A stretch of 64,000 nucleotides of DNA from a virus: IMG/VR virus record IMGVR_UViG_3300029258_001887. One strand, given 5' to 3'. How positions within the stretch are numbered: position 1 is the first letter of the stretch; each line of letters begins with the position of its first letter. The notes under the pieces were generated by a model. That model saw nothing but the letters and a program-made list of their open reading frames with translations, made no database searches and had not been told where the DNA came from. Below are positions 2,543 to 16,301 of the stretch, one piece after another. The translations under genes and the position numbers were made by a program.

Positions 2543-2894
2543 GGGGGTGAAAGGATTTCGACAGGGTCGAGGAAGGTTGTGTGGCGTGCCGAGGTTGTCA
2601 GTGGGCCTCGTAAAACAACTGGCAAAAAACCTTAAACGGCGAAGCTCGTTTTCGCATGGCTGCGTAAGTAGCCCGCTGATCGGAAGACTCCCGCTATTCC
2701 GTGAAGCGACGACCAGTGGGATAGTGTCGATCTGATACCTTGCCGGATCGCTACGAAACAACAGCAGGGCGTGGAAAAGCGAAAGCCTGTCGGTTGGCGT
2801 TCGTGGCTCCGAGAGTTAAAAAACTGACTACGCACGTAGAAGCAGAATTGGAATGACTTCTGGACCGGGCTCTCGGATGCCCGCACCTCCACCA
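2543..2894 (+). ncRNA. ssrA: tmRNA; tag reading frame (A)GEARFRMAA* at 2638-2667
   Basis: 5' GGGGGTGAAAGGATTTCGAC and 3' CACCTCCACCA form an acceptor stem with G3-U wobble; tag ending AA-stop; ~350 nt. Confidence 0.92.
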
Positions 2895-2908
2895 AAAGGA
2901 ACCATCTC

Positions 2909-3406
2909 ATGCTTGAGATGTTACGGCAGTATGCCGATAAGTTCTGGGCGAGGGTTGCCAAACGTGGCGACGATGAATGTTGGCTGTGGACGAAAGCCCA
3001 CGATCGCTATGGATATGGCAAGTTTCAGTTTCAACACAGACGGAAGAAACAATGTGTCAAGGCTCATCGTACTGCCTATATGCTTGTTCATGGTCGTGAG
3101 ATAGGCCCTGAAGAGTTTGTCTGCCATACGTGTGACAATCGTTCATGTTCGAATCCCGCCCACCTAGTATTGGGCGACAATGACTTCAATATGGCAGATT
3201 GTGTCTCAAAGGGGAGAGCGGCCAAAGGCCACAGGCACCCCAACGCTAAATTGACCGAGACACAAGTGGTTGAGATCAGACGCAGGGTTGATGCTGGCGA
3301 AATCCGGTCTGCCCTGGCTCGGGAGTTCGGCGTGTCAAAAAGCACCATTACTTATGTGATGGGTCGTGGTTGGAAAAATGGCTGGAGACACGTTAATGAC
3401 AGATAA
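2909..3406 (+). CDS. HNH homing endonuclease with C-terminal HTH
   Basis: CWLW..GYG..AHR..VCHTCDNRSCSNPAHL; AKLTE..V.EIR HTH. Confidence 0.9.
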   Translation: MLEMLRQYADKFWARVAKRGDDECWLWTKAHDRYGYGKFQFQHRRKKQCVKAHRTAYMLVHGREIGPEEFVCHTCDNRSCSNPAHLVLGDNDFNMADCVSKGRAAKGHRHPNAKLTETQVVEIRRRVDAGEIRSALAREFGVSKSTITYVMGRGWKNGWRHVNDR

Positions 3407-3674
3407 ATTAGAGGGTGTAAAGCGAATCCACTCTCGATTGATACACGCTAAGATACTTGTGGTTGATGACGACTTTCAGGATACCGAAGACGGTTTTCTA
3501 AGACAACATGCTGACGTTATTATGACGCAAGACGGAGTAGTGGTAAAAAGCAAACTGACCAGAGTTCCTGTTGAGGCCGATTTGGAGCAGTGTTCGGATG
3601 ATGGCCAACTGGCGAAGCTGAGAACAGCCATCATTGATGCTGCCAAGAAAATCCGTAGGATTGAGCTAGACTGA
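3396..3674 (+). CDS. Hypothetical protein
   Basis: GGAG RBS, TGATG coupling to next gene. Confidence 0.55.
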   Translation: MTDKLEGVKRIHSRLIHAKILVVDDDFQDTEDGFLRQHADVIMTQDGVVVKSKLTRVPVEADLEQCSDDGQLAKLRTAIIDAAKKIRRIELD

Positions 3675-4210
3675 TGAGAACACTGATCGACGCTGAACGT
3701 CTCCAGGCCAGGGTTTCTGATATGGCTCTGGAGATTGATTCGTATTATCAGAGGCAGGAATGGTATCGTCTTAGCAACGAACCAGTCGTCGTTATAGGTG
3801 TGATGACTGGCGCTCTGTTCTTCTTGGTCGATCTGGTCCGTCAATTGACTATTCGGACTGAGTTGGATTTGATGAGGGTATCCACCTATCCGGGTCGAGC
3901 TACTACAGCCCAAGAACCACGAGTGATCGCACCACCGACAAAACGATTACACGACTCTCATATTTTGTTGGTGGATGACATATTGGACACCGGCAAAACT
4001 ATTCAGACAATTCGAACTTGTCTAGCATGGCCGTACCCGGAAGATATCAGGACAGCGGTATTGTTGAGGAAACCTGACAAGGTGCCGCCCGACGTAACAG
4101 CAGACTTCATTGGGTTTGATATTTCCGATGAATGGGTGGCTGGTTACGGAATGGATGATCGGCATGGACGGCGAAGAGAAGTTCAAGATGTTTTTATAGA
4201 CGAGGATTAA
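3674..4210 (+). CDS. hpt: Hypoxanthine phosphoribosyltransferase-like protein
   Basis: PRPP motif ILLVDDILDTGKT; GVMTGALFFLVDL; WVAGYGMD. Confidence 0.88.
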   Translation: MRTLIDAERLQARVSDMALEIDSYYQRQEWYRLSNEPVVVIGVMTGALFFLVDLVRQLTIRTELDLMRVSTYPGRATTAQEPRVIAPPTKRLHDSHILLVDDILDTGKTIQTIRTCLAWPYPEDIRTAVLLRKPDKVPPDVTADFIGFDISDEWVAGYGMDDRHGRRREVQDVFIDED

Positions 4211-4215
4211 GCATT

Positions 4216-4785
4216 ATGCCGTCATGTGAACTCTGGAAAGATGTTACTGGATACGAAGGCAGATACCAAGTATCTGATTGTGGTTCTGTCAGAAGTTTAC
4301 CCAGGCCATGGCGAAAACAGTTGTTAATTTTGAAGCCTGGTAGAGATACCGATGGATACCAACAAGTTGCATTGCACAAAAATGGCAAAAGGGTCACCAG
4401 AAAAGTACATCAATTAGTGCTTGAGACATTCGGTGCTACTCGCCTATCGAAGGATGATGTAACCAGGCATCTGGATGGCAATAAAGATACCAACAGGATA
4501 GACAACTTGAAGTGGGGGAGTGTGGCCGAAAACGCAACGGATGCTGTCCAGCATGGAACATCACCGGGCTTTGGGAGTTGTGGTGAGAACAATGGGCAGT
4601 CAAAACTAACGTCTGACGACGTGCGTCGTATTCGACAACTACTCAGAACCGGAAAATACGAACAACAGAAGTTGGCTTCCTTATTTGGTGTTTCCAAGCA
4701 GACGATAACATTTATTAAGCAGGGGAAAACGTGGAAAGGTATTGGTGAACAAAATGAATCTGGACAAAATCAAGACAAGGGTTGA
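4216..4785 (+). CDS. NUMOD4-HNH homing endonuclease
   Basis: WKDVTGYEGRYQVSDCGSVRS; RHLDGNKDTNRIDNLKW; C-terminal HTH. Confidence 0.9.
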   Translation: MPSCELWKDVTGYEGRYQVSDCGSVRSLPRPWRKQLLILKPGRDTDGYQQVALHKNGKRVTRKVHQLVLETFGATRLSKDDVTRHLDGNKDTNRIDNLKWGSVAENATDAVQHGTSPGFGSCGENNGQSKLTSDDVRRIRQLLRTGKYEQQKLASLFGVSKQTITFIKQGKTWKGIGEQNESGQNQDKG

Positions 4786-5074
4786 TGAAATCAGTCGATC
4801 TACTGGCACCAAGAATCCGAAGGTATTGGTAGCCGAGTTGTGTGGTGTGATCAAGGGGCTTATCGGGGAACTTGAAAAGATTCAGAATCCTCCGGTCACT
4901 GTTTTGCCGAAGCGACTGCCGGAAGACCTTGAACTTCCGTTGAAATCCGAGCCGGTGGAATTGCCGCCGATGATGCCGCCCCCAACGGGTGAGCCGAGGC
5001 CGCAGTTTCCGTCACCGAATCCGAGTGTGTTGCCGCCGAGACGGCGCGAAGGGAATGCAGGAGACGCAGAGTAA
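4754..5074 (+). CDS. Pro-rich hypothetical protein
   Basis: ORF coupled (TAATG) to ligase gene. Confidence 0.6.
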   Translation: MNLDKIKTRVDEISRSTGTKNPKVLVAELCGVIKGLIGELEKIQNPPVTVLPKRLPEDLELPLKSEPVELPPMMPPPTGEPRPQFPSPNPSVLPPRRREGNAGDAE

Positions 5075-6036
5075 TGTTCGTAACCGAGCACACATGCGAT
5101 GTTGTTGAAGTCAAGCTGATGCCACACCCCAACGCTGATGCGTTGAGTCTGGTGATGGTTGGAGATTTCCAATGCGCTGTCCGCACCGCAGACTGGAATG
5201 ACGGCGATCTGGCTGTCTACATTCCACCGGACAGTATCGTGCCCGAGACCAAGGAATTTGAGTTTCTGGGCAAGCATCGCAGGATCAAGGCTCGGAAGCT
5301 GAGGGGCGAATGGTCTGTCGGACTACTGGTTCCTGCACCAGAAGGCGCGAAGGTGGGCGACGACTGCATGGAGCAGTTGGGGGTCGTTCATTATGAACCG
5401 CAGGTGCATGGCAACTTCAAGACCGGTGGAGACAATGTGACGCCGCCGCCTGGATTCATGCCAACATACGATGTGCTGAATTTCCGCAAATATTCTCGGT
5501 TGTTCCAGGCTGGTGAAGAGGTGATTGTCACCGAGAAGATACACGGAGCCAACGCACGATTCGCTTGTGTCAACGATGTGATGTACTGCGGGTCGCGCAA
5601 GTTTTGGAAGCAGGAAGACCCCAACAACCTGTGGTGGAAAGTGCTCCAGCAAAACACAGCCCTTGAAGCATGGCTGAGACATCATCAGGATTACGTGGTC
5701 TACGGTGAAGTGTTTGGGCAGGTTCAGAACTTGAAGTATGGATCGACCAATGGTGCTCTCTTCTTTGCTGCGTTCGACATTCTCCACGGCAATCGGTGGC
5801 TGGACTTTGACGAGGCGCACGAGATCGGTGCTCCGTTGCCTTGGGTGCCTTTGGTGCATCGCGGCCCATTTGACAAGGATCAGATATTGGCATTCGCGGA
5901 AGAGGACAGTTTGTGGCCAGGTGCGAAACATCATGCTGAGGGGGTAGTGGTTAAGCCGGTTCATGAACGCACCGATCCGCGAATCGGTAGAGTCCAACTG
6001 AAAGTGGTAGGTAACCGGTATTTGAGCAAGAGCTAA
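5074..6036 (+). CDS. ATP-dependent RNA ligase (DRB0094-like, N-terminal OB-like domain)
   Basis: Motif I EKIHG, YGEVFG, FAAFDI, EGVVVK, LKVVG; N-terminal PHPNAD. Confidence 0.88.
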   Translation: MFVTEHTCDVVEVKLMPHPNADALSLVMVGDFQCAVRTADWNDGDLAVYIPPDSIVPETKEFEFLGKHRRIKARKLRGEWSVGLLVPAPEGAKVGDDCMEQLGVVHYEPQVHGNFKTGGDNVTPPPGFMPTYDVLNFRKYSRLFQAGEEVIVTEKIHGANARFACVNDVMYCGSRKFWKQEDPNNLWWKVLQQNTALEAWLRHHQDYVVYGEVFGQVQNLKYGSTNGALFFAAFDILHGNRWLDFDEAHEIGAPLPWVPLVHRGPFDKDQILAFAEEDSLWPGAKHHAEGVVVKPVHERTDPRIGRVQLKVVGNRYLSKS

Positions 6037-6503
6037 TGTTACGGTTTGTTGACGGCAATATGTTTGATCTGGACGCCGACGTACTGGTAAATACGGTGAA
6101 TTGTGTTGGTGTCATGGGGTGCGGCGTTGCGCTAGCCACCAAACAACGGTATCCAGAGATATACAGGCGGTATCGTGCCGACTGCAAGAATGCCACGATA
6201 ATGCCGGGTGGCGTTTATGTTTATCGAGCCAATGACGATAAGCTCATTCTCCAGTTTGCCACCAAGGATCATTGGAGACAACCATCGCGGCTCGTTTATA
6301 TCCAAAATGGTCTTGATGCCCTGAAGAATATATTGCAACAGCAACCACATGGAACTGTCGTAGCGATACCGGCTCTCGGATGTGGGCATGGTGGCTTGGA
6401 CTGGGATACCGTCAAGGCAATGATCGAAAGTCGTCTGAGTGATTTGGATCACCTGGACATCCATGTTTTTCAGCCACAGGATTCCAGGGCATTGGGGAGG
6501 TAG
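6036..6503 (+). CDS. Macrodomain ADP-ribosylhydrolase, DarG-like
   Basis: GNMFD..LVNTVNCVGVMGCGVA..TKDHWRQPS..IPALGCGHGGLDW. Confidence 0.88.
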   Translation: MLRFVDGNMFDLDADVLVNTVNCVGVMGCGVALATKQRYPEIYRRYRADCKNATIMPGGVYVYRANDDKLILQFATKDHWRQPSRLVYIQNGLDALKNILQQQPHGTVVAIPALGCGHGGLDWDTVKAMIESRLSDLDHLDIHVFQPQDSRALGR

Positions 6504-6505
6504 AG

Positions 6506-6796
6506 ATGCCATACATCCCGAAAAAGGAACGTGAGAAATACGACTATCTGATCGATGCTCTGGCCCACATACTCAACACACGGGCCGACAGCGATGAACT
6601 ATCGGGAGAAATGAACTACGTCCTGTTTCGTCTGGCAAGGCTGTTGTGCGACGGCGAATCTGGCGGTAAGCGCGGATACGCAAGAATGGCTGTGGTGTCA
6701 TCTGCGCTCGCAGAAGCTCAGGCGGAATTCCGTCGTCGGGTGATGGCACCCTACGAAGACGAGAAAATCAGTTTGGCAGGAGATGTCGAACTGTGA
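6506..6796 (+). CDS. Conserved phage hypothetical protein (MPYI...PYEDEK family)
   Basis: MPYI, GEMNY, EFRRR..PYEDEK motifs; GGAGG RBS. Confidence 0.7.
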   Translation: MPYIPKKEREKYDYLIDALAHILNTRADSDELSGEMNYVLFRLARLLCDGESGGKRGYARMAVVSSALAEAQAEFRRRVMAPYEDEKISLAGDVEL

Positions 6797-6872
6797 GGGT
6801 TGGTAGCTCAGCTATGGTAAGAGCGTCGGTCTGAAAAGCCGAGCGTCGGTGGTTCGACTCCACCCCGACCCA
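6797..6872 (+). tRNA. tRNA-Phe(GAA)
   Basis: Cloverleaf; anticodon arm TCGGT-CTGAAAA-GCCGA. Confidence 0.95.
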
Positions 6873-6875
6873 TGA

Positions 6876-6949
6876 GGCGGTATAGCTCAATTGGATAGAG
6901 CACCGGCCTGTCGAGCCGGGTGGTGCGAGTTCGAGTCTCGCTACCGTCG
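6876..6949 (+). tRNA. tRNA-Asp(GTC)
   Basis: Cloverleaf; CCGGC-CTGTCGA-GCCGG. Confidence 0.95.
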
Positions 6950-6960
6950 TTGAATTTTGA

Positions 6961-7032
6961 TGCGGGGTGGAGCAGTGGTAGCTTAGCGGTTTCATAAGCC
7001 GAAGGTCGCCGGTTCAAATCCGGCCCCCGCAA
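6961..7032 (+). tRNA. tRNA-Met(CAT), initiator-like
   Basis: (T)GCGGGGTGGAGCAG start typical of fMet; GCGGT-TTCATAA-GCCGA. Confidence 0.9.
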
Positions 7033-7043
7033 GTCTAACTCTT

Positions 7044-7341
7044 GGCGACACAAGAGAGAGCATGAGAGAATCGCTTGCGATTCTCAAGAAATTGTGCCGA
7101 AACCGATGTCGCGGTAGTTAGCGGTGAACGCCGGAATAGTGACCGCCGAACGGAGTGCGAGGCCCGTATTGGTGACGGTTGTGCCGAATTGTTGGGGCGG
7201 CACACGACAGGTAGTCGGCTGTACGGCGGGGTGTTCCCGTGAAACCGCCAGCCCCGAATGTTAGGACCAGGGGCCAAAGTCAGTGTCGGCAAGGTTGGAC
7301 AATGTGACAGGGGACTGCTGGTCGAATCCAGCCCGTCGCCA
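7044..7341 (+). ncRNA. Unknown ~300-nt structured RNA with tRNA-like acceptor stem and T-arm
   Basis: GGCGAC...GTCGCCA terminal pairing; GCTGG-TCGAAT-CCAGC arm; several internal hairpins; no plausible ORF. Confidence 0.65.
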
Positions 7342-7371
7342 TTAGTTCCGTAAGGTTAAGGGAGAAGAAAG

Positions 7372-7671
7372 ATGTTGCGAGTAAGACAAGGTTCTGATGA
7401 AGTTGAAATTCGGTTCGACCACAAGTTTTGTCGGCCAGACGAGATAGAGGGGCTGACCGGTATCTGTGTTGACGAAGACCGTAGATGTACGTTGGCTACG
7501 CTGCAACTGAACGGATCGGTCATTAGTCGTGGGATGGCTGTGTGTCATCCGGCTGACAACTTCTGTCGGGCTACTGGCAGGAAAAAGGCTTTGGTCTATG
7601 CAATCCACCCTCTTGATAAGCAATTCCGCGCCGCTATTTGGCGTGAATACGAAGCCCAGTGTGGTTTCTGA
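7372..7671 (+). CDS. Conserved phage hypothetical protein
   Basis: G.A.CHP.D.F.R.TGRK.AL motif; GGAG RBS. Confidence 0.7.
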   Translation: MLRVRQGSDEVEIRFDHKFCRPDEIEGLTGICVDEDRRCTLATLQLNGSVISRGMAVCHPADNFCRATGRKKALVYAIHPLDKQFRAAIWREYEAQCGF

Positions 7672-7680
7672 AAGTGGGCC

Positions 7681-7869
7681 ATGGATACTGAATATATCAT
7701 TGTATCGGACGATGACGGACACAACTATGTGATTCCTGCCGACAAGTCGAAAGAGTGGAATCGTTGGCTTGACTCCCAAGATTGCCAAGGTGGTATAGTC
7801 CCGACATGGTGTGAATCCATCGGTGGTTCGATCAGCTTGGTGAAATTCAAGAGCTACCGTATTGACTAG
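7681..7869 (+). CDS. Hypothetical protein
   Basis: ORF in operon context. Confidence 0.6.
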   Translation: MDTEYIIVSDDDGHNYVIPADKSKEWNRWLDSQDCQGGIVPTWCESIGGSISLVKFKSYRID

Positions 7870-7878
7870 GAGATTGCT

Positions 7879-8139
7879 TTGAATCCAGAAGAAGCAAAGA
7901 AAATCAAGTGTGACCGTTGTGGAGCAGTTATCGGTCTCCATCGTCACTCGGATGGCTGGCGATGTCCGCAATGCATCTGGAACGAGCGCGAGAACTTGAT
8001 TGAGTGGGCTAGGTGCTTGCTGAGTGCGACCGATTACACGACCGCAGCCAACACCGATAGGCAAGCCGTCGTGGTTTCTCGTCGAACGATGGACGCCCTG
8101 GCGGAAGTTGTCCGCGAGGTTACCGCCACAGGTGTATAA
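7879..8139 (+). CDS. Zn-ribbon hypothetical protein
   Basis: CxxC...CxxC; AGGAG RBS, TTG start. Confidence 0.6.
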   Translation: MNPEEAKKIKCDRCGAVIGLHRHSDGWRCPQCIWNERENLIEWARCLLSATDYTTAANTDRQAVVVSRRTMDALAEVVREVTATGV

Positions 8140-8152
8140 GCTATGGGGATGC

Positions 8153-8225
8153 GCCCCTGTAACTCAATAGGAAGAGTACCTGTTTTGTACACAGGATGTT
8201 GGCGGTTCGATTCCGTCCAGGGGCT
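8153..8225 (+). tRNA. tRNA-Thr(TGT)
   Basis: Cloverleaf; CCTGT-TTTGTAC-ACAGG. Confidence 0.95.
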
Positions 8226-8227
8226 AT

Positions 8228-8624: not shown

Positions 8625-8637
8625 GGGTGTATAATCT

Positions 8638-8916: not shown

Positions 8917-8942
8917 TACGGGGAAAAGATGGGGGGAGTCAA

Positions 8943-9491: not shown

Positions 9492-9704
9492 GTGACTGAC
9501 TGGAACGAAGAAGTACAACGGGCTGCTGAACGAGCTATGGAAGTGGCTACTGCGGTAATCCGCAAAGACGGCCCCAAGAGCAAGCCCTACTGCGTGTACA
9601 GTGAGAAGACAGGGCGGAAGTTCGGGTGTTACCCGAGTCGTAAGCAGGCCGAGGAACGGCTAAAGCAAATTGAGAAATTTCGCTACATAAAGGGTAATAA
9701 ATAA
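9492..9704 (+). CDS. Small basic phage protein
   Basis: YCVYSEKTGRKFGCYPS...RLKQIEKF motif. Confidence 0.65.
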   Translation: MTDWNEEVQRAAERAMEVATAVIRKDGPKSKPYCVYSEKTGRKFGCYPSRKQAEERLKQIEKFRYIKGNK

Positions 9705-9705
9705 C

Positions 9706-9768
9706 ATGATTGAAATTGATGCCATGACTGGCCCAGTAATTTTGAATTTATATGCCCAGCCCGTCTGA
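9706..9768 (+). CDS. Putative leader peptide D (MIEIDAMTGPVILNLYAQPV)
   Basis: 20-aa ORF followed by alternative hairpins and a terminator. Confidence 0.45.
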   Translation: MIEIDAMTGPVILNLYAQPV

Positions 9769-9814
9769 CGTATCAGCGGTACCCAGCTTGCCCACCATGT
9801 GTGGGTGGAGTAAC

Positions 9815-9848
9815 GGTGTCGTCTTCCGGGGGCGGCACCAGTTTTTTT
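9815..9848 (+). terminator. Intrinsic terminator / attenuator D
   Basis: GGTGTCGTC/GGCGGCACC stem + AGTTTTTTT. Confidence 0.8.
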
Positions 9849-9857: not shown

Positions 9858-9887
9858 TGAAACAAACACCGGAGTTTGGGGTATAAT
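9858..9887 (+). promoter_or_regulatory. Promoter, class TG(A/G)AAC-N18-TATAAT
   Basis: TGAAAC 9858-9863, TATAAT 9882-9887. Confidence 0.75.
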
Positions 9888-9909
9888 GATACTGTAGGAG
9901 GAACAACCA

Positions 9910-9993
9910 ATGAGATCGATACGCAGACATTATAAACCCGCCATTTTAGCCGCCGCGCTCAATCCACGCGCACGGGGTGGTGATGCGGGCTAA
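9910..9993 (+). CDS. Leader peptide B (MRSIRRHYKPAILAAALNPRARGGDAG)
   Basis: AGGAGG RBS 9896-9901; 27 aa; 3' end forms a 14-bp antiterminator with the terminator 5' arm. Confidence 0.8.
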   Translation: MRSIRRHYKPAILAAALNPRARGGDAG

Positions 9994-10026
9994 GGTCTGT
10001 CTGTTCCTTTTTGACTGGAGACTTTG

Positions 10027-10052
10027 GCCCGCGAGAAATCGCGGGCTTTTTT
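10027..10052 (+). terminator. Intrinsic terminator / attenuator B
   Basis: GCCCGCGA-GAAA-TCGCGGGC + TTTTTT. Confidence 0.9.
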
Positions 10053-10067
10053 ATTGGAATATCGGAC

Positions 10068-10667
10068 ATGAAGACCACAGTGGTAAATATTCGCCAAAAC
10101 GAATACGACGTGTATATCGGCAGGGAGGGACACGGCCATGATGGCTATTTTGGGAATCCCTTTTCCGCTATGCGAGATGGTGGCCGTGAGAGGGCAATCG
10201 CGCTGTACAGGGAGTATTTCTACCGGCGATTGCGGGTTGACTCAGAATTTGCTGAACGAGTACAGGAATTAAAGGGTAAACGATTAGGATGTTTTTGCGC
10301 ACCGAAACCATGCCATGGTGATATTATAGCCGATTATGTAAATATTGAACCCAATGTTAAACCATATGTTGATGAGTTAATGGCTGGAGGTTTCTACACT
10401 TTTTCGTCTTGCGACGGTGGTAATGGTCACTCATTCAAAAAAAGAACAATTAAAATCAACGTAGATCAGCCAACTGTCGATGATCCATGTGGATATGATA
10501 TTACTATCCGTGGAGAACGCAGATGTTACGAAAGATTCATCGATTTGTGCGATTTTATTGAAGGTAAGAAATGGACATATTGCAAAGTATTATTAGTAAG
10601 AGAATATATAATAAATGACCAGAATGTGCCCAAAGCAAATGTCCATTTTGAATTGGTGTGGAATTAA
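10068..10667 (+). CDS. DUF4326-like protein with C-terminal extension
   Basis: YDVYIGR..FGNPF..LKGKRLGCFCAPKPCHGDII. Confidence 0.8.
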   Translation: MKTTVVNIRQNEYDVYIGREGHGHDGYFGNPFSAMRDGGRERAIALYREYFYRRLRVDSEFAERVQELKGKRLGCFCAPKPCHGDIIADYVNIEPNVKPYVDELMAGGFYTFSSCDGGNGHSFKKRTIKINVDQPTVDDPCGYDITIRGERRCYERFIDLCDFIEGKKWTYCKVLLVREYIINDQNVPKANVHFELVWN

Positions 10668-10668
10668 A

Positions 10669-10773
10669 ATGAAGGTTATTGTTTGTGGTAGTCAAGATTG
10701 GAAGGGATACCAGACGATTAGAAAGCGGTTGGAATTGCTTCCGCCCAATGCCATAGCGATGAAAGTGGGTTGA
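10669..10773 (+). pseudogene. Truncated SLOG/YspA-like (DUF2493) gene remnant
   Basis: MKVIVCGSQDW..TIRKRL N-terminus then stop after 34 aa. Confidence 0.5.
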
Positions 10774-10806
10774 TCGAGCGGTTCGAGGTTGGGGGATATA
10801 GATAAC

Positions 10807-11040
10807 ATGGATACGACAGAAAAGAGAACGCTGTATCGAAATGCGTATGGACAGGTTCAGTGTGACAGGTGTGGTTGCTATAGTGATCTAATCTATCCGG
10901 TACACTTGCGGAATCAGAATGGATCGTGGGTAAGTATGTTGTGTCATCGCTGTCAGGGTGGACCGCCCGGAAGTCGTGTTGAGAGAATCGACGATCCGAT
11001 CGATCTCAAGACTTATGATGGACCTGTCAAAGAAGGGTAG
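10807..11040 (+). CDS. Zn-ribbon hypothetical protein
   Basis: CDRC...CHRC; stop abuts tRNA-Pro. Confidence 0.6.
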   Translation: MDTTEKRTLYRNAYGQVQCDRCGCYSDLIYPVHLRNQNGSWVSMLCHRCQGGPPGSRVERIDDPIDLKTYDGPVKEG

Positions 11041-11113
11041 CGGAGTGTAGCTCAGTTGGTGGAGCGCGCGGTTTGGGACCGTGAGGTCGGTGGTTCGAGT
11101 CCACTCACTCCGA
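11041..11113 (+). tRNA. tRNA-Pro(TGG)
   Basis: Cloverleaf; CGCGG-TTTGGGA-CCGTG. Confidence 0.95.
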
Positions 11114-11116
11114 GTC

Positions 11117-11189
11117 TTGCGGGTAGCTCAATGGCTAGAGCGTTCGCCTGTTAAGCGAAAGTGTGCGGGTTCGAATCCCGTCCCGTAAG
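11117..11189 (+). tRNA. tRNA-Asn(GTT)
   Basis: Cloverleaf; TTCGC-CTGTTAA-GCGAA. Confidence 0.95.
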
Positions 11190-11202
11190 TTAGGAGATTG
11201 GT

Positions 11203-11379
11203 ATGAAGTGTGGCGAAAAAATATGGGTTATTTACGATACCAGGACTGGCAATATTGCTGAAAGTGGAGATAATTCTTTGCCTTTGATTTTCGAAGATGA
11301 AGACGCCGCAAGAGATTGTGCTGATTTGGTTCGTCACTGGGATGTATATCCAGCCTTTCTTACACGAGAGGAAAAATAA
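11203..11379 (+). CDS. Small hypothetical protein (58 aa)
   Basis: AGGAG RBS; TAATG coupling to next gene. Confidence 0.6.
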   Translation: MKCGEKIWVIYDTRTGNIAESGDNSLPLIFEDEDAARDCADLVRHWDVYPAFLTREEK

Positions 11380-11783
11380 TGCAGACATTTTTGCCCTATG
11401 CCGATTTCGACAAGAGTGTCCATTGTTTGGACAGGCAGCGGTTGGGGAAGCAGCGGGTGGAGGCGATGCAGATTCTCAATACCCTTGCCCGTGGTAGTCG
11501 ATGGGCAAATCACCCTGCTGTCCTGATGTGGCGGGGATACGAGAATGCATTGCGACTGTACATGAACAAGTGTATCCAGGAATGGATTCGACGTGGATAC
11601 AACAATACGATGCAGATTGCAGAAGTGACAGAACCAGTTGAGATGCCACCGTGGTTCGGGGATGAAGAATTCCATGCATCTCATAGATCGAATCTGCTTC
11701 GCAAGGATGCAGAGTGGTACGGACAATTTTGGTGGGGCGAGACAGACAAGTTGCCGTATGTTTGGCCCGTGAGGAAAAGCTGA
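11379..11783 (+). CDS. Pyrimidine-dimer DNA glycosylase family protein (MSMEG_6728-like)
   Basis: MQTFLPY..LDRQRLGKQRVEAMQIL..HPAVLMWRGY..SHRSNLLRKD. Confidence 0.85.
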   Translation: MQTFLPYADFDKSVHCLDRQRLGKQRVEAMQILNTLARGSRWANHPAVLMWRGYENALRLYMNKCIQEWIRRGYNNTMQIAEVTEPVEMPPWFGDEEFHASHRSNLLRKDAEWYGQFWWGETDKLPYVWPVRKS

Positions 11784-12064
11784 TGGATTTGAGTGGTATT
11801 GAGGAATTGTTGGAGTTTGCTAGGGTGGACAAAGAAACAGCGCAGCAAATTTGGAAAGACGTAAAGGCGAACCACAAGAGGTTGGACAATTGCAAGGGGC
11901 CACATGATTTTCGACCAGTTCCGGCTGAAGGGAAAAGTCTTGTCCGCGATTACGTGTGTTCCCGGTGCAATGGCAAGGTCGATGCCATCCACAAGTTGTG
12001 GTACGAGAGGGGGTTGGAGCATGGACGCAGCGAAGCTCAAGGCGATTCTGGAAAGACTACGTAA
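11783..12064 (+). CDS. Hypothetical protein with Cys/His cluster
   Basis: TGATG coupling; C..PHDF...CSRCNG. Confidence 0.65.
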   Translation: MDLSGIEELLEFARVDKETAQQIWKDVKANHKRLDNCKGPHDFRPVPAEGKSLVRDYVCSRCNGKVDAIHKLWYERGLEHGRSEAQGDSGKTT

Positions 12065-12100
12065 GGTCTATGGCGAGATGCTCAAGCGGCTGGCGAAGTA

Positions 12101-12224
12101 ACAACCTCCAGGGGTTGTATTTCGGGAAAACAACCTTTAAGGGTTGTCTTTGGGAAAACAACCAAAAAAGGTTGTCTGGCAGCCAAAAATGGTTGCCTCA
12201 GCGGAGGCAGCCGAAAATGGTTGC
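12101..12224. repeat. Array of five 18-bp palindromes RCARCC-N6-GGTTGY
   Basis: Copies start at 12101, 12130, 12158, 12179, 12207; invariant 6-nt spacer. Confidence 0.9.
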
Positions 12225-12235
12225 CTGGAGAAAAA

Positions 12236-12718
12236 ATGAGCATAACAGTACAAGATATCAGGAAGGCGATTACCGAGATCAAGCGGGTCCACAATTTACC
12301 TACTTCGCAAGTGGTAGAAGCATTTTTGATCAACCGCGACGATCTGGACGAGCTATGTAGCTGGGCTGTCGATCAAGGACAGCCGATACACGATCGAGAA
12401 ACTGGAACGGTTTTTGTCTATGGTGTCAAGATCATCGAAAGCCCTTATGTCCCGAAGGGAACCATCTACAAATTGCTCAAGGATAATTTACAGGAATATG
12501 CGATGGGTGGTTTTGGGGCTGGTGTTAGTGGAATGATACCAGCGTCATCCGATTTCGCTACCACGATACCAGCGAGTGGTTCGTTCAAGATGCCCGACTG
12601 CTTTCCTGTCGTGCCAGAGAGTGGGACGATCTACGTACCAAAGCCTACGCCGACACCGGCTGTACCAAAGAAGCCAGAGAAGAAACACAGTTCAAAGAGA
12701 CGGATCGAGTTGGACTGA
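12236..12718 (+). CDS. Hypothetical protein
   Basis: GGAG RBS; ends RRIELD like 3396..3674. Confidence 0.65.
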   Translation: MSITVQDIRKAITEIKRVHNLPTSQVVEAFLINRDDLDELCSWAVDQGQPIHDRETGTVFVYGVKIIESPYVPKGTIYKLLKDNLQEYAMGGFGAGVSGMIPASSDFATTIPASGSFKMPDCFPVVPESGTIYVPKPTPTPAVPKKPEKKHSSKRRIELD

Positions 12719-12724
12719 CAATAC

Positions 12725-12796
12725 GGGGGGATAGTGATAACGGGAGCACACCTGCCTTGCAAGCAGGAAGTCGGGGTTCGATTCCCCGTCCTTCCA
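12725..12796 (+). tRNA. tRNA-Ala(TGC)
   Basis: Cloverleaf, G3-U70; CCTGC-CTTGCAA-GCAGG. Confidence 0.93.
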
Positions 12797-12809
12797 TTGG
12801 AGAACAGAG

Positions 12810-13162
12810 ATGAAAGTGGATAAGCCTAAACTCAGAAGTGGGCCAACAGGACCACATTCACATGGATACAAAATGTGTATGGTTAGGTATTCGGACGGAA
12901 CCGACAAAGCTATTACATGGCACAAGTATATCTACGAATCTGAATAGAGAATCTGGAAGCTAAGGTAGTTTCTGATCATACCAGAGGACATCAGACACCG
13001 GCGTCGGCAAAGACCTATGTGTGCCCATGGTGTGGTATTAGTTTCGAACGCTCGGATCGTAGAGTACGACACAATCAAACGAGTCAGCGGAAGGCTGGCC
13101 CCTTTTGTAGTCGATCGTGTGGTGCAAGCTGGGGAAGAGAAAAACAGCTTGGAAGATTGTAG
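12810..13162 (+). pseudogene. Internally deleted HNH endonuclease gene
   Basis: N-part ...HKYIYESE* then, in another frame, IENLE..H..H + CPWCG...FCSRSC; HNH core missing. Confidence 0.6.
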
Positions 13163-13244
13163 CCCCTGTGATGGAATTGGCAGACATGACTGGTTTAAGC
13201 CCAGTTGCCTTCATGGCGTGTAGGTTCGAACCCTACCGGGGGTA
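13162..13244 (+). tRNA. tRNA-Leu(TAA)
   Basis: Long variable arm; ACTGG-TTTAAGC-CCAGT. Confidence 0.93.
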
Positions 13245-13250
13245 GTAGCA

Positions 13251-13323
13251 GCCCGAGTAGCCCAACGGCAGAGGCACACGGCCTAGAACCGTGTCAGTGG
13301 TGGTTCGAATCCACTCTCGGGTA
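13251..13323 (+). tRNA. tRNA-Leu(TAG), short variable loop, C33
   Basis: CACGG-CCTAGAA-CCGTG. Confidence 0.85.
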
Positions 13324-13329
13324 TTTGAT

Positions 13330-13402
13330 AGGTAGGTAGCTCAACTGGTAGAGCAGTGGTCTCCAAAACCAAAGGTTGAGGGTTCGAATCCCTCCCTGCC
13401 CA
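13330..13402 (+). tRNA. tRNA-Trp(CCA)
   Basis: Cloverleaf; loop CTCCAAA. Confidence 0.92.
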
Positions 13403-13404
13403 TA

Positions 13405-13477
13405 GGGCGGTTAGCTCAGTTGGGAGAGCACCTGCCTTACAAGCAGGGGGTCGCAGGTTCAAGCCCTGCACTGCCCA
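13405..13477 (+). tRNA. tRNA-Val(TAC)
   Basis: Cloverleaf; CCTGC-CTTACAA-GCAGG. Confidence 0.95.
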
Positions 13478-13482
13478 TTTGA

Positions 13483-13554
13483 GCCGGTGTAGTTCAACTG
13501 GTAGAACGCTCGGCTGTGGACCGGGAAATACAGGTTCGAGCCCTGTCGCTGGTG
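13483..13554 (+). tRNA. tRNA-His(GTG)
   Basis: CTCGG-CTGTGGA-CCGGG; lacks encoded G-1/C73. Confidence 0.85.
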
Positions 13555-13600
13555 TAACAGGTTTGGTATACAAAAACCGCCTCGCGGATATTGGCTCAAA

Positions 13601-13675
13601 GCGCCCGTAGTCTAATTGGATAAGGCCCTCGCCTTCTAAGCGAGTTTGTTGGGGGTTCGAGTCCCTCCGGGCGTG
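13601..13675 (+). tRNA. tRNA-Arg(TCT)
   Basis: CTCGC-CTTCTAA-GCGAG. Confidence 0.95.
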
Positions 13676-13677
13676 TA

Positions 13678-13750
13678 GGGGATGTAGCTTAATTGGCAGA
13701 GCACTGGTCTCTTAAACCAGAGGATGTGGGATCGTTGCCCACTGTCCCCA
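13678..13750 (+). tRNA. tRNA-Lys(CTT), atypical T-loop ATCGTTG
   Basis: CTGGT-CTCTTAA-ACCAG. Confidence 0.88.
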
Positions 13751-13762
13751 TTGGAGGCTAGA

Positions 13763-14140
13763 ATGGTAAAGCACGGATCACCGCCGTATCTGGAATGCAG
13801 CACACACGGAGACCGAAGGTTCTCTGCGTTCTGTGCTCGCCTGGAAGGCCGGGGTGGAAAGAGTATCGAAGAAATCTACCAAGCAGCCAAGGTGTTCGAA
13901 GGCGGGGTGACTGGCCTGACATGGCAAGATGCGAAGGGTCGGGTGCCTATCAATGGAGAAGAGGTAGCTCGATTGTACTCCCAGCTTTGGGATGAATACA
14001 TTGACGAGAATCCACACTTGTTGGATGTCTTGAAGATGGTGAGTGGCGTCAGCGACAAGTTCGGTCAACGGGGTCACATGTGCCAAGCGACAGAATTATG
14101 GAGGATTAGATGTGAGAGGGCTGGTAACTCAATGGATTAG
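13763..14140 (+). CDS. NADAR-like protein (resembles DarT1-associated antitoxin family)
   Basis: LECST.GD.RFSAF..RL...SIEEIYQAAKVFEGG...D.FG...CQA; GGAGG RBS; stop inside tRNA-Lys(TTT). Confidence 0.65.
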   Translation: MVKHGSPPYLECSTHGDRRFSAFCARLEGRGGKSIEEIYQAAKVFEGGVTGLTWQDAKGRVPINGEEVARLYSQLWDEYIDENPHLLDVLKMVSGVSDKFGQRGHMCQATELWRIRCERAGNSMD

Positions 14141-14191
14141 AGTAGCGGGCTTTTAACCCGCAGGCTGTGGGTTCGAGTCCCACCCAGCCCA
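14118..14191 (+). tRNA. tRNA-Lys(TTT)
   Basis: GCGGG-CTTTTAA-CCCGC. Confidence 0.95.
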
Positions 14192-14209
14192 GTAGTGAAG
14201 GGGGTTGTC

Positions 14210-15217
14210 ATGAAGCTTGAAGACATTGGATTCTACACGCTATCTGACAAGCGTGCGTTGAACGCTAGCGACACCTCTCCGTTGCAGCGGTGTGAGTTGA
14301 TTCTTACGGATCGCTGTAACCTACGGTGTCCGTATTGCCGTGGTGTAAGACCGGAGATTCGTGGAGATATGCCGTTCAAACAGGCGATTAAAACTGTCAA
14401 TCTCTGGATCGCTCAAGGGCTGAAGAACGTCAGGTTCTCTGGTGGGGAGCCTACTCTATACAAGTGTCTGGGTAAGTTGGTTGATCGTTGTCGTGAAGGT
14501 GGGGTCGAGCGTATCGCAATCTCCACAAATGGTACGGCAAAGCTTGAGACCTATCTGGCTTTGGTCGGAGCGGGTGTCAACGATTTCTCCATCAGTCTTG
14601 ATGGTGGTTGCTGCGCTGTTGGTACGGACATGGCCGGTGGAGTGAAGGGTGCATGGGCGAAGGCTGTAGAGTCTATCCGCACTCTGAGCAAGATCACCTA
14701 CGTAACCGTTGGCATGGTCTTCACCGAGGCTAATGTTGACCAGTGTGTTGAGGCTGTGCTGTTCGTGGACAGCCTGGGGGTTTCTGACATCCGAGTTATC
14801 CCAGCGGCACAGTACAACCAAGCTTTGACAAAGCTGGCCGATTTGCCAGACGAGGTATTGGACAAGTACCCGATCCTGAAGTACCGGATTGGGAACCTGA
14901 AAGCTGATAGAAGTGTACGCGGAATCTGTGAGGGCAATTGTCGCAAGTGCTGGTTGGCACTGGACGACATGGCTGTAGCCGGTAAATGGCACTTCCCATG
15001 CATCATCCACTTACGGGAAGGTGGCGATCCTATCGGTGAAGTAGGTCCGAACATGAGGGCCGAGCGACTACAATGGATTCTTGAACACGATAGCATGGCC
15101 GACCCAATCTGTGCTGCGAACTGCCTGGACGTGTGCGTTGACTACAACGACACGGCAGCTATATCGCACCCAGAAAAGAGGGCCGGTAGCTCAGTGGTAC
15201 GAGCGGGATGCTTATAA
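14210..15217 (+). CDS. Radical SAM enzyme
   Basis: CNLRCPYC, SGGEPT, STNG, ISLDG; extra C-terminal Cys; stop inside tRNA-Ile(TAT). Confidence 0.9.
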   Translation: MKLEDIGFYTLSDKRALNASDTSPLQRCELILTDRCNLRCPYCRGVRPEIRGDMPFKQAIKTVNLWIAQGLKNVRFSGGEPTLYKCLGKLVDRCREGGVERIAISTNGTAKLETYLALVGAGVNDFSISLDGGCCAVGTDMAGGVKGAWAKAVESIRTLSKITYVTVGMVFTEANVDQCVEAVLFVDSLGVSDIRVIPAAQYNQALTKLADLPDEVLDKYPILKYRIGNLKADRSVRGICEGNCRKCWLALDDMAVAGKWHFPCIIHLREGGDPIGEVGPNMRAERLQWILEHDSMADPICAANCLDVCVDYNDTAAISHPEKRAGSSVVRAGCL

Positions 15218-15252
15218 CATCCAAGTCGCTGGTTCGATTCCAGCCCGGCCTA
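15180..15252 (+). tRNA. tRNA-Ile(TAT)
   Basis: GGATG-CTTATAA-CATCC. Confidence 0.92.
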
Positions 15253-15255
15253 TGT

Positions 15256-15334
15256 TGGCTGATAGCTCAGTTGGTAGAGCAGTGGTAGGGTCGCTCCCTG
15301 CTACGGCGCGCAGGTTCGAGTCCTGCTCAGCCAG
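15256..15334 (+). ncRNA. tRNA-like RNA with non-canonical 9-bp anticodon arm
   Basis: Canonical acceptor, D and T arms; anticodon arm GTGGTAGGG-TCGCT-CCCTGCTAC. Confidence 0.8.
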
Positions 15335-15339
15335 TAGAT

Positions 15340-15412
15340 GTCTCCGTAGTGTTCAACAGTAGCACGCCAGTCTTCCAAACTGGAGGTCTCGGTGCAAATC
15401 CGAGTGGGGACT
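15340..15412 (+). tRNA. tRNA-Gly(TCC), atypical D and T loops
   Basis: CCAGT-CTTCCAA-ACTGG; no GG in D-loop; T-loop TGCAAAT. Confidence 0.85.
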
Positions 15413-15416
15413 TTGG

Positions 15417-15490
15417 GGGCTTGTAGCTCAGTGGAATTAGAGCACCGTCTACGGAACCGGGTGTCGGGAGTTCGAATCTCTCCAGGCCCA
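15417..15490 (+). tRNA. tRNA-Arg(ACG) with 1-nt-short anticodon stem
   Basis: CCGT-CTACGGA-ACCGG. Confidence 0.8.
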
Positions 15491-15498
15491 TTGAAGCA

Positions 15499-15571
15499 GG
15501 GCTTGTAGTTTAGTGGTTAAAACACACGCCTGATAAGCGTGAGATCGCTGGTTCGATTCCAGCCAAGCCCA
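15499..15571 (+). tRNA. tRNA-Ile(GAT)
   Basis: CACGC-CTGATAA-GCGTG. Confidence 0.95.
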
Positions 15572-15638
15572 TAAAGGGGTAACATCGGGTCGATCTTACC
15601 CCATTAACGGGATTTTACCCCATTCCATTACCCCATTG

Positions 15639-15668
15639 TGGATAGAAACACCGTCATTGGTGTATAAA
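15639..15668 (+). promoter_or_regulatory. Promoter variant TGGATA-N18-TATAAA (also GTGTATAAA)
   Basis: Same 18-nt spacing; preceded by TTACCCCATT x3. Confidence 0.55.
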
Positions 15669-15671
15669 CTG

Positions 15672-15866
15672 ATGATGGAAGAAAGAGAAACAGGCATCCC
15701 ATGCTTTGGGTGCGGTCAACGATCGGGTATCGATTGCCCAGGCCGCAGGCCGGATGAGGCCACCCGTTGTAAGGTGTGCTTGGAAGAATTCATGCGGCAG
15801 ATGGACACAGCAGAGCGGGTCATGGAGGAACACAAGGACATGTTGAGAAGGTTGGCAGATTCGTAG
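15672..15866 (+). CDS. Small Zn-finger hypothetical protein
   Basis: CFGC...CKVC. Confidence 0.6.
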   Translation: MMEERETGIPCFGCGQRSGIDCPGRRPDEATRCKVCLEEFMRQMDTAERVMEEHKDMLRRLADS

Positions 15867-15875
15867 GAGCGAGAA

Positions 15876-15947
15876 ATGAAGCTACAACAGCAATCATCCC
15901 AGTCGAGTAGTCAACGGCCTCGTGGCCGTCTGGGGTGGACTGTGTAG
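15876..15947 (+). CDS. Leader peptide C (MKLQQQSSQSSSQRPRGRLGWTV)
   Basis: AGGAG RBS; 10 consecutive Gln/Ser codons; alternative hairpins with downstream terminator. Confidence 0.85.
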   Translation: MKLQQQSSQSSSQRPRGRLGWTV

Positions 15948-15969
15948 ATTCAGGTACACGGAAACACAG

Positions 15970-16005
15970 AACCGGGCGGTCCATGAGGGCTGTCCGGTTT
16001 TTTTT
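15970..16005 (+). terminator. Intrinsic terminator / attenuator C
   Basis: AACCGGGCGGTCC-ATGA-GGGCTGTCCGGTT + T-run, 10 nt before tRNA-Ser. Confidence 0.9.
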
Positions 16006-16014
16006 GTGCGCAGA

Positions 16015-16097
16015 GGAAAGCGCCGCGGAATGGTCTGCAACTCGGTTTGAACCCGAGGGGGGCTGAAAGGCTCGGGGTTCGATTCCTCCGCTTTCCG
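16015..16097 (+). tRNA. tRNA-Ser(TGA), 8/4 cloverleaf
   Basis: 8-bp acceptor GGAAAGCG/CGCTTTCC, 4-bp T-stem, long V arm, G73. Confidence 0.85.
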
Positions 16098-16138
16098 TTA
16101 TCTTGTGGTTCTATGGGGTATATATACACCATAGAATG

Positions 16139-16223
16139 GGGTGGTGAAGTCGCAAGGCGCGGCCACCGGCTGCTAACCGGTTGGGGCTCGCACGAGTCTG
16201 TGGGTCGGGACCACCGCCATCCG
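16139..16223 (+). tRNA. tRNA-Ser(GCT), 8/4 cloverleaf
   Basis: 8-bp acceptor GGGTGGTG/CGCCATCC, T-stem GTGG/CCAC, ACCGG-CTGCTAA-CCGGT, long V arm. Confidence 0.82.
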
Positions 16224-16227
16224 TTGA

Positions 16228-16301
16228 GGGCCGATAGCTCAAGCTGGCAGAGCGTCTGGCTTTGAACCAGGAGGTTGCAAGTTCGAACCTTGCTCGGCCT
16301 G
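16228..16301 (+). tRNA. tRNA-Gln(TTG)
   Basis: TCTGG-CTTTGAA-CCAGG. Confidence 0.93.

Follow-up and report, generated by a model that had tools for sequence, protein, structure and literature searches.

How is the expression of a large viral array of transfer RNA (tRNA) genes controlled, and does such an array respond as one system? The question is raised by positions 2,543 to 16,301 of a 64,000-nucleotide stretch of DNA, hereafter the window, from IMG/VR virus record IMGVR_UViG_3300029258_001887, in which tRNA genes stand together with a transfer-messenger RNA (tmRNA), an RNA ligase and putative enzymes acting on ADP-ribose. An earlier note on this DNA had taken the locus for an integrated, conditionally expressed translation-rescue island that reads damage to host translation from the position of ribosomes on its leaders. 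We lean, somewhat more than evenly, towards a different answer: that the locus is a phage accessory arm wired as a series of read-through-dependent units, in which a leader at 15.9 kb would act as a codon-matched attenuator and another at 9.9 kb as a general switch. Coordinates of the individual features are collected in Table 1.

The leader that first suggests codon matching is the one at 15.9 kb. It holds a small open reading frame (ORF) with an AGGAG 6 nt before its ATG at 15877, which is predicted to be translated, and in which all ten of codons 4-13 specify Gln or Ser (binomial P 4e-10 against the codon usage of the genome). Nine of these ten codons are readable, under strict wobble, by the anticodons of the three tRNAs encoded behind the leader, Ser(UGA), Ser(GCU) and Gln(UUG). 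Of the 2,795 small ORFs in the genome, no more than one other equals the codon count. A terminator of 14-15 bp with eight T separates the ORF from these genes; tRNA-Ser(UGA) begins 13 nt downstream of it, a gap too short for a promoter. The ORF segment 15920-15934 can pair with the 5' arm of this terminator; in predicted folds it does so once the beginning of the ORF is masked, and not otherwise. None of the other 48 terminator-like hairpins counted in the genome surpasses it in upstream pairing to a 5' arm (z -2.4). The pairing has an energy of -18.8 kcal/mol against -19.7 for the hairpin, and when the aligned sequences are paired by hand it withstands four substitutions in L126, a related viral sequence from a 165,526-bp contig with about 70% identity. 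Judged on these features, the 15.9-kb leader is most likely a codon-matched leader-peptide attenuator. With ribosomes slowed on the ten Gln/Ser codons, the segment would be free to pair with the terminator 5' arm, and RNA polymerase would then read into tRNA-Ser(UGA), and probably on into Ser(GCU) and Gln(UUG).

Such a design would resemble the trpL, hisL, leuL, pheL, thrL, ilvL and pheM attenuators, which likewise combine a promoter-proximal small ORF, equipped with a ribosome-binding site and a run of cognate codons, with an intrinsic terminator and an ORF segment able to pair with the terminator 5' arm. These features hold for the 15.9-kb unit and for the units of the phages L062, L242 and RB23 described below. 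The likeness has its limits: the regulated genes here are the phage tRNAs themselves, two isotypes would be read together, the ORF of the window lies in frame with an upstream gene, and the alternative helix is moderately supported, the whole case being built from sequence.

Could the same features have come together by coincidence in ordinary gene cassettes? On that explanation the terminators do no more than close upstream units or small RNAs and are sufficiently leaky for the genes behind them to be expressed; the Gln/Ser ORF is the vestigial tail of the zinc-ribbon (Zn-ribbon) ORF that precedes it, cut off by a nonsense codon, and its agreement with the three tRNAs behind it is fortuitous. 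A number of observations favour it or weigh against the attenuator reading. The Gln/Ser ORF is in frame with the Zn-ribbon ORF, with a single TAG, at 15864-15866, between the two. In L126, an 84-nt in-frame gap fuses them, and the Gln/Ser-rich stretch is the C-terminus of a 65-residue protein, followed by the same terminator, a tRNA-Ser remnant and a tRNA-Gln. In the closest relative, G001 (an uncultured viral contig of 160,023 bp, 71-88% identical in syntenic stretches), an endonuclease gene and a tRNA fragment replace the run, the tRNAs are lost and the terminator is retained; neither relative, then, keeps the Gln/Ser ORF as a separate frame. Minimum-energy folds of the whole leader retain the terminator, the z-scores of the alternative pairing are only about -2, both tRNA-Ser genes score low and may be decaying, terminator-promoter junctions recur along the arm, and a chance match of similar score turned up in L129, a relative from a 168-kb contig. 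Looser promoter variants, TATAAA or TATATA, are found at 15660 and 16116. A further difficulty is that at 16103-16130, between tRNA-Ser(UGA) and tRNA-Ser(GCU), lies a near-palindromic promoter-like element that matches the motif on both strands, and this palindrome could express Ser(GCU) and Gln independently of the leader.

Against coincidence stand the improbability of the ten-codon run and its near-uniqueness among the small ORFs of the genome, and the position of tRNA-Ser directly behind a strong terminator, hence with no promoter of its own. The Ser content of the run also differs in step with the genes behind it, with five Ser codons before two tRNA-Ser genes in the window and two before a tRNA-Ser remnant in L126, and the same layout recurs with other amino acids in unrelated phages. 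We regard coincidence as unlikely, yet well short of negligible, and we consider it about an even matter whether the 15.9-kb unit is functional.

The recurrence in other phages bears on how general the match is. A concordance score was defined as the best window of an ORF's codons readable by the next four tRNAs. It was applied to a first set of 140 non-redundant loci around homologues of the radical S-adenosylmethionine (SAM) enzyme, ligase and NADAR genes, together with six GenBank tRNA regions, which yielded 192 tRNA clusters, with 144 small ORFs in intergenic positions no more than 230 nt upstream of them. Four ORFs reached a score of at least 4, against 0.09 expected from 1000 shuffles of the tRNA sets (reached in 0/1000); with GC-matched controls and a stricter filter, one that drops the window's own case, the figures were 2 against 0.08, and at the amino-acid level 3 against 0.31. 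The independent matches are those of the window, L062, L090 and L076. L062 carries a full unit, with a promoter, an Asn/Glu run, an 11-bp antiterminator in the ORF (z -3.7) and a terminator, followed by tRNAs for Met, Met, Glu, Asn and Asn. In L090, a Gln/Glu-rich ORF (L090:16416-16478) abuts tRNAs for Glu, Glu, Gln and Gln, and in L076 an AGA/AGG-rich ORF (L076:2636-2728) abuts tRNA-Arg(UCU). Both were rejected as transcription attenuators, since no terminator lies between the ORF and the tRNAs; if these ORFs are regulatory, the mechanism is not classical attenuation. A Lys-rich mini-ORF before two tRNA-Lys genes in L064 was likewise set aside, with a score of merely 2.2-2.4.

A second, independent set, recovered by means of a tRNA-Arg(UCU) pattern, comprised 120 loci containing 427 clusters and 571 small ORFs. 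Two of its scores exceeded 5 against 0.27 expected (P 0.02). They belong to L242, which carries three units on its reverse strand, at 394-570 (Asn), 9651-9806 (Pro/Gln/Asp) and 10972-11135 (Gln), each with a matched run and a terminator, ahead of the Asn, Gln-Pro-Asp and Gln-Gln tRNAs; the antiterminator of the Asn unit is clear. Among cultured phages, Caulobacter phage RB23 (MZ574433.1) has two small ORFs, L154:3755-3874 and L154:11609-11707, before its two tRNA clusters. In one, 33/38 residues correspond to the eight isotypes represented among the 12 tRNAs that follow (P 8e-8). The other has a 14/14 run drawn from the six isotypes of its seven downstream tRNAs (P 8e-8), and here a terminator, together with a copy of the terminator 3' arm inside the ORF, can be made out by eye. 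Three findings pull the other way. Scores in the moderate range were not in general excess in the second set (3 against 3.2 at score 3, 2 against 0.66 at score 4), its two strong matches come from a single low-GC phage, and the high score of a Met-rich ORF in L129 proved an artefact, lying out of frame inside a real lipoprotein-like gene. The earlier note had proposed this comparison of small ORFs upstream of phage tRNA clusters with shuffled controls; concordance is indeed above chance, but the pattern is rare. The codon-matched tRNA-leader design is, in our view, real in some phages, rare overall and lineage-restricted. A full-text literature search returned no paper describing leader attenuators of phage tRNA genes.

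The leader at 9.9 kb is organized differently. Its small ORF has an AGGAGG upstream of the ATG at 9910, close behind the -10 motif, and is predicted to be translated. The end of this ORF, its last codons and stop, supplies the 5' strand of a 14-bp antiterminator helix. This helix overlaps the terminator 5' arm, and folding of the nascent RNA gives it as the minimum-energy structure (-27.1 kcal/mol, z -3.9); with the whole ORF unmasked, the terminator folds instead. The terminator itself has 9 bp and six T, and two independent compensatory pairs support it among the window, G001 and L126. The module as a whole is conserved at 86% in G001 and 72% in L126, with 14/14 antiterminator pairs kept in the former and 12/14 in the latter, where by eye a 2-nt bulge restores the remainder; L129 matches only the upstream 62 nt. 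Frame, length and stop of the ORF are kept in the three phages, and most of its N-terminal codons differ. The first gene behind the leader encodes a DUF4326 protein in the window and in L126, and another gene intervenes in G001. Exact-pattern scans for the 9.9-kb and 15.9-kb leaders found G001 as the sole match, to which a scan of radical SAM neighbourhoods in metagenomes added just a twin of G001.

We take the 9.9-kb leader, on this pattern of conservation, as a real cis-acting switch that is possibly ribosome-dependent and not a codon-specific sensor. A ribosome reaching the stop of the ORF would free the terminator, and one held upstream would permit read-through. Two results tell against a codon-matched, ribosome-driven version of this scheme. 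The residues of the ORF fall within the downstream tRNA isotypes in 23/26 cases in the window (P 0.002), in 3/26 in G001 and in 13/25 in L126, a match confined to the present genome, and the ORF of L126 lacks a Shine-Dalgarno sequence. Because the codons are not conserved, the switch would report general translation speed at most. The closest parallels are the erm, msrD and vmlR/ABC-F leaders, attenuators of general translation stress: here, too, the ORF stop lies inside the antiterminator, the progress of a ribosome would decide termination, and there is no conserved amino-acid-specific run. Unlike those leaders, the 9.9-kb ORF shows no evident drug-dependent arrest peptide, its peptide varies among relatives, one relative is without a Shine-Dalgarno sequence, and the first regulated gene is that of DUF4326, followed by tRNAs.

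Both leaders fit into a wider transcriptional layout. Twelve + strand copies of the motif G[GT]GTATAAT and a single - strand copy are present in the genome, where by our own estimate about 1.2 copies would be expected; its copies in the window lie at 1811, 8627, 9879, 16317, 17645, 30963 and 41170. Several copies have an ATG just 2-4 nt downstream, an arrangement that suggests leaderless or near-leaderless transcripts. Strong + strand terminators stand at 375, 1897, 9815, 10026, 15968 and 16980. Together these elements define three co-directional units, in each of which a promoter-like motif comes first, followed by a short leader and then an intrinsic terminator (modules 1810-1926, 9858-10053 and 15660-16005), and because each unit opens in this way, conditional read-through may fairly be inferred. 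The second unit may carry the DUF4326, NADAR-fold and radical SAM genes and 17 tRNAs; we extend it so far because there is no strong + strand terminator between 10047 and 15968. The earlier note had spoken of multiple attenuator-like switches, and the three promoter-leader-terminator modules bear this out. A codon-matched small ORF is another matter, being present at only one of the eight tRNA clusters of the window, the Gln/Ser ORF with 3/23 tRNAs behind it; for the other seven, none was found within 450 nt.

The first of the three leaders, at 1.8 kb, heads the unit with the tmRNA, the RNA ligase, the macrodomain and the tRNAs for Phe, Asp and Met. It is conserved at 82-85% in G001 and L126, above the flanking coding DNA. 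An ORF starts 4 nt past its -10 motif, and in G001 indels of 1 nt and 6 nt break the frame; because of this disruption we read the element as a noncoding leader or a small RNA. A conserved noncoding leader raises the possibility that read-through depends on modification of RNA polymerase by a protein, after the manner of lambda Q or N, with the modules serving as loading sites for an antiterminator that times the arm. A promoter, a strong terminator within 90-310 nt and a long operon make up, from what is known of lambda, the classical Q layout, as in the lambda late promoter and its short 6S RNA transcript, and a shared promoter motif heads all three units. What this explanation does not accommodate are the conserved RNA alternatives and small ORFs of the window, which the lambda system lacks: the conserved 14-bp antiterminator over the ORF stop and terminator at 9.9 kb would be superfluous, and the codon match at 15.9 kb would go unexplained. 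No Q- or N-like gene came to light, no search having been aimed at one. We think control of the Q/N type very improbable here.

Comparison with relatives speaks to whether the whole arm could be one system. The record as a whole, from an uncultured phage of 161 kb, is 97% complete (CheckV); in the window the G+C content is 49%, and the GC skew is positive across the first 42 kb. The 2543-16301 stretch is part of this one viral record, and the homologous arm sits within syntenic viral contigs of 160 to 168 kb, so the idea of an island integrated in a host falls away. No close GenBank phage was found, DNA searches giving tRNA-sized matches or nothing. The relatives, at 70-90% identity, differ in content. 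Across the 40 kb compared, the syntenic stretch of G001 has 6 tRNAs and is without the tmRNA and without the endonuclease/phosphoribosyltransferase block (2909-4785 in the window, which has no match there); in their syntenic stretches L126 has 11 tRNAs and a tmRNA, and L129 has 2 tRNAs. We also note that G001 (L003:10990-12470) has two extra ORFs, placed after the radical SAM gene and before the conserved terminator; by eye one has a ligase-like KxDG motif and the other is HNH-like, and the 5' half of a tRNA follows them. The arm is a mosaic, fast-changing accessory arm of the standard kind and not a coherent regulon; because the tRNA and tmRNA content of the relatives differs so sharply, a tightly integrated regulon is hard to reconcile with it.

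The protein-coding genes point the same way. The RNA ligase finds its best solved relative, over its full length, in 5cot, the Naegleria ligase NgrRnl (E 1e-12), which is of the Rnl5 nick-sealing type and not of the T4 Rnl1 type; by these sequence matches the phage enzyme is Rnl5/NgrRnl-like, not T4 Rnl1-like. The genome has no match to an AAA_33 kinase (PF13671) or to a CCA-adding enzyme, SmpB or KptA (PF01743, PF01668, PF01885), and because of this a T4-like heal-and-seal pathway is not evident within the families searched. The model of T4 Rnl1 acting against PrrC, on which the earlier note had drawn, is therefore not what these matches point to: what the window shares with T4 repair of PrrC-cleaved tRNA-Lys by Pnkp and Rnl1 is a phage RNA ligase beside tRNA genes, and it differs in the type of the ligase and in having no match to an AAA_33-type kinase such as Pnkp or to KptA.

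The label of ADP-ribose erasers is a fair one for the macrodomain, NADAR-fold and DUF4326 proteins; their link to translation rescue is not, in that the nearest relatives belong to defence by DNA ADP-ribosylation. The whole macrodomain protein, residues 1-150, matches 5m3i (E 4.9e-33) and 5m31 (E 8.8e-33) in the PDB, which are DarG macrodomains, proteins that strip ADP-ribose from DNA. The protein encoded at 13724-14140, whose true start is probably near 13760, scores 0.0024 and 17.8 bits against the Pfam NADAR-DarT1 family, under the cut-off of 27; its structural model (built from 18 homologues; pLDDT 86) has a sole clear PDB match, to the Geobacter NADAR protein 8bat (E 2.4e-3, probability 1.00, TM 0.54 by query). 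Given the DarG-like macrodomain and the predicted NADAR fold of the 13.7-kb product, the two look anti-DarT in character rather than suited to translation rescue. They would resemble the DarG macrodomain and the DarT1-associated NADAR antitoxins, with the differences that the phage genes stand alone, without a DarT partner, and that their action on ADP-ribosylated DNA is presumed from these matches. DUF4326 has been proposed to process phosphates on ADP-ribose products, and RNA ligase/repair, Macro, NADAR and DUF4326 genes occur in early regions of large phages (PMC9503650). No relatives of the DUF4326 protein were confirmed in a scan of viral contigs. The stretch also encodes a protein of the MSMEG_6728 family, and it has three HNH endonucleases overall.

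With these results in hand, we can return to the proposal that the whole stretch from 2.5 to 16.3 kb is one counter-defence regulon, sensing translation damage by ribosome position and needing no protein regulator. It draws credit from the promoter, leader and terminator that open all three units, from the two leaders that hold ORFs after Shine-Dalgarno sequences together with alternative pairings, and from the positive concordance test. Set against it, the leader of the tmRNA/ligase/macrodomain unit lacks a conserved ORF, gene content varies widely among close relatives, the ligase is Rnl5-like with no end-healing enzyme matched, the macrodomain and NADAR proteins resemble DNA-acting antidotes to DarT, and the codon-matched leader precedes three tRNAs only. 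A single sense-and-respond regulon of this kind appears improbable to us. The gene set is instead a phage translation-support and anti-defence arm, early-type and rich in homing endonucleases. Arrays of this type furnish tRNAs where those of the host are broken down or cut, probably with ribosome rescue as well, and include enzymes directed against ADP-ribose-based defences.

Among the RNA genes of this arm, the tmRNA in its alignment shows, by eye, the G3-U70 pair, an encoded terminal CCA and a short frame with two Ala codons before TAA; ARAGORN gives no tmRNA call at 2543-2894, and the tmRNA of L126 lies in the same place and is 77% identical. Because a family search of the phage genome found no SmpB, host SmpB would be required. 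Twenty-one tRNA genes are called by ARAGORN and Rfam alike, and 23 when the two low-scoring tRNA-Ser are counted. The earlier inventory of a tmRNA, an RNA ligase and 22 tRNAs was therefore right in its first two items and needs amending in the third, to 23 with two weak tRNA-Ser and one aberrant call; its statements that no tRNA of the window has an encoded CCA and that none reads Cys, Tyr or Glu hold, CCA being absent after every tRNA gene of the window and the only other tRNA of the genome being a Glu(UUC), far off on the opposite strand. The tRNA-Ser(UGA) also yields a sub-threshold tRNA-Sec match.

The aberrant gene, called Ala(CGC) at 15255-15335, is 81 nt long; its acceptor stem has 8 bp, and its anticodon stem is over-long. 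The anticodon arm can form 9 bp with a 5-nt loop, and the gene gives a sub-threshold YrlA match of 39.8 bits. Possible identities are a decoy, a pseudogene and an unusual tRNA. Small ORFs at 7879-8139, 10789-11040, 13019-13162 and 15672-15866 each have two CxxC pairs, Zn-ribbon-like by eye, and end at, or a few bases from, a tRNA gene. In Cronobacter phage S13, an annotated DksA-like zinc-finger gene stands in the equivalent position.

Directly behind the first tRNA cluster lies a structured RNA without a known family, with a 5' module at 7044-7171 and a 3' module of about 150-170 nt that is closed by a 6-7-bp acceptor-like stem and a T-arm. Its core blocks are 97-100% identical to G001 (L003:4352-4815), and the inserts between the blocks vary. 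The 5' module is common to the window and G001 only, the latter having a tRNA-Glu(CUC) between the two modules, and L126 (L126:11343-11505) retains the 3' module only. Compensatory changes occur at ten predicted pairs; by eye, one internal 5-bp helix has three such changes between the window and L126. No Rfam family matched at E up to 1, and ARAGORN, run with introns allowed, found no intron-containing tRNA there. A tRNA with a group I intron, an RNase P RNA and a second tmRNA were each considered as its identity and dropped for want of a match.

Table 1. Position and supporting evidence of the features of the window; numbering is that of the window except in the first line.
Feature	Position	Strand	Evidence or remark
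Whole stretch (window)	41883-105882 of contig		single 160,681-bp viral contig, IMG/VR
Module at 1.8 kb: promoter-like motif GGTGTATAAT 1810-1819, leader of ~75 nt, intrinsic terminator 1896-1926	1810..1926	+	
tmRNA	2543..2894	+	Rfam RF00023, 132.9 bits (gathering score 47), full length, model positions 1-374
HNH endonuclease	2909-3406	+	
Hypoxanthine phosphoribosyltransferase-like gene	3674-4210	+	
HNH/NUMOD4 endonuclease	4216-4785	+	
RNA ligase, N-terminal OB fold	5074-6036	+	PF09414 6e-28; PF21189 6e-14; PHA02142 OB fold
Macrodomain, DarG-like	6036-6503	+	PF01661
tRNA Phe(GAA), Asp(GUC), Met(CAU)	6797..7032	+	ARAGORN, Rfam
Structured RNA, no known family	7044..7341	+	directly 3' of tRNA gene; two modules
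tRNA Thr(UGU)	8153..8225	+	ARAGORN, Rfam
Terminator of previous unit	9815-9839	+	
Promoter -10 motif of 9.9-kb leader	9879-9887	+	
27-codon small ORF, preceded by AGGAGG	9910-9993	+	
Antiterminator of 9.9-kb leader	9985-9998 pairing with 10019-10032	+	
Terminator of 9.9-kb leader	10026-10047	+	followed by T run
DUF4326 protein	10068-10667	+	PF14216 1.7e-22
tRNA Pro, Asn	11041-11190	+	ARAGORN, Rfam; small ORFs lie among these and the next two entries' tRNA genes
tRNA Ala	12725-12796	+	ARAGORN, Rfam
tRNA Leu, Leu, Trp, Val, His, Arg, Lys	13162-13750	+	ARAGORN, Rfam
NADAR-fold protein	13724-14140	+	phrog_9995 1e-35
tRNA Lys(UUU), Ile(UAU), aberrant tRNA-like RNA, Gly, Arg(ACG), Ile(GAU)	within 14118..15571	+	ARAGORN, Rfam
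Radical SAM enzyme, generic	14195-15217	+	
Promoter-like motif of 15.9-kb leader	15660-15668	+	
Zn-ribbon ORF	15672-15866	+	
23-codon small ORF, preceded by AGGAG	15877-15947	+	
Candidate antiterminator of 15.9-kb leader	15920-15934 pairing with 15972-15986	+	
Terminator of 15.9-kb leader	15968-16001	+	
tRNA Ser(UGA), Ser(GCU), Gln(UUG) cluster	16015..16301	+	
tRNA Ser(UGA)	16015-16097	+	ARAGORN at relaxed threshold only
tRNA Ser(GCU)	16139-16223	+	ARAGORN at relaxed threshold only

Arrays of tRNA and tmRNA genes are well known in large phages, and the arm belongs in their company. Among cultured examples, SmallFry combines a tmRNA with about 30 tRNAs, a peptidyl-tRNA hydrolase and an HNH gene; in Beuffert, an RNA ligase and a polynucleotide kinase accompany the tmRNA and tRNAs; and Cilsick, S13 and RB23 are further cultured phages with comparable arrays. 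Like the arrays of Bxz1-like cluster C1, Streptomyces BE, T5-like, T4-like and Caulobacter phiCbK-like phages, which hold dozens of tRNAs, small ORFs and HNH genes and sometimes a tmRNA, RNA ligase or kinase, the window has tRNAs interleaved with small ORFs and HNH genes. It stands apart in that its phage is without a close GenBank relative, its Rnl5-type ligase has no kinase-phosphatase partner among the families searched, and genes resembling DarG and NADAR lie inside the array.

What phage tRNAs are for, and at what point they are used, is debated; the leading proposals are that they compensate for codon usage, stand in for degraded host tRNAs or allow escape from anticodon nucleases. It is possible, and we advance this only tentatively, that some phage tRNA genes are gated by leader attenuators that read the tRNAs' own codons, the window contributing one Ser/Ser/Gln unit and a codon-unspecific switch at the head of a 6-kb operon with 17 tRNAs and enzymes that process ADP-ribose, and that most of the arm is expressed only when host translation falters. 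The gain from the window itself would be modest, being one imperfect member of the class within an arm that also carries tmRNA, DarG-like and NADAR-like genes. The design is testable, as similar units are present in the cultured Caulobacter phage RB23. If the proposal is true, own-codon attenuators would constitute a feedback loop or a sensor of tRNA depletion, by which a phage would measure decoding capacity codon by codon and answer with the matching tRNA. This would favour the depletion- or cleavage-based views of phage tRNAs, and would extend classical attenuation from the supply of amino acids to the supply of tRNAs.

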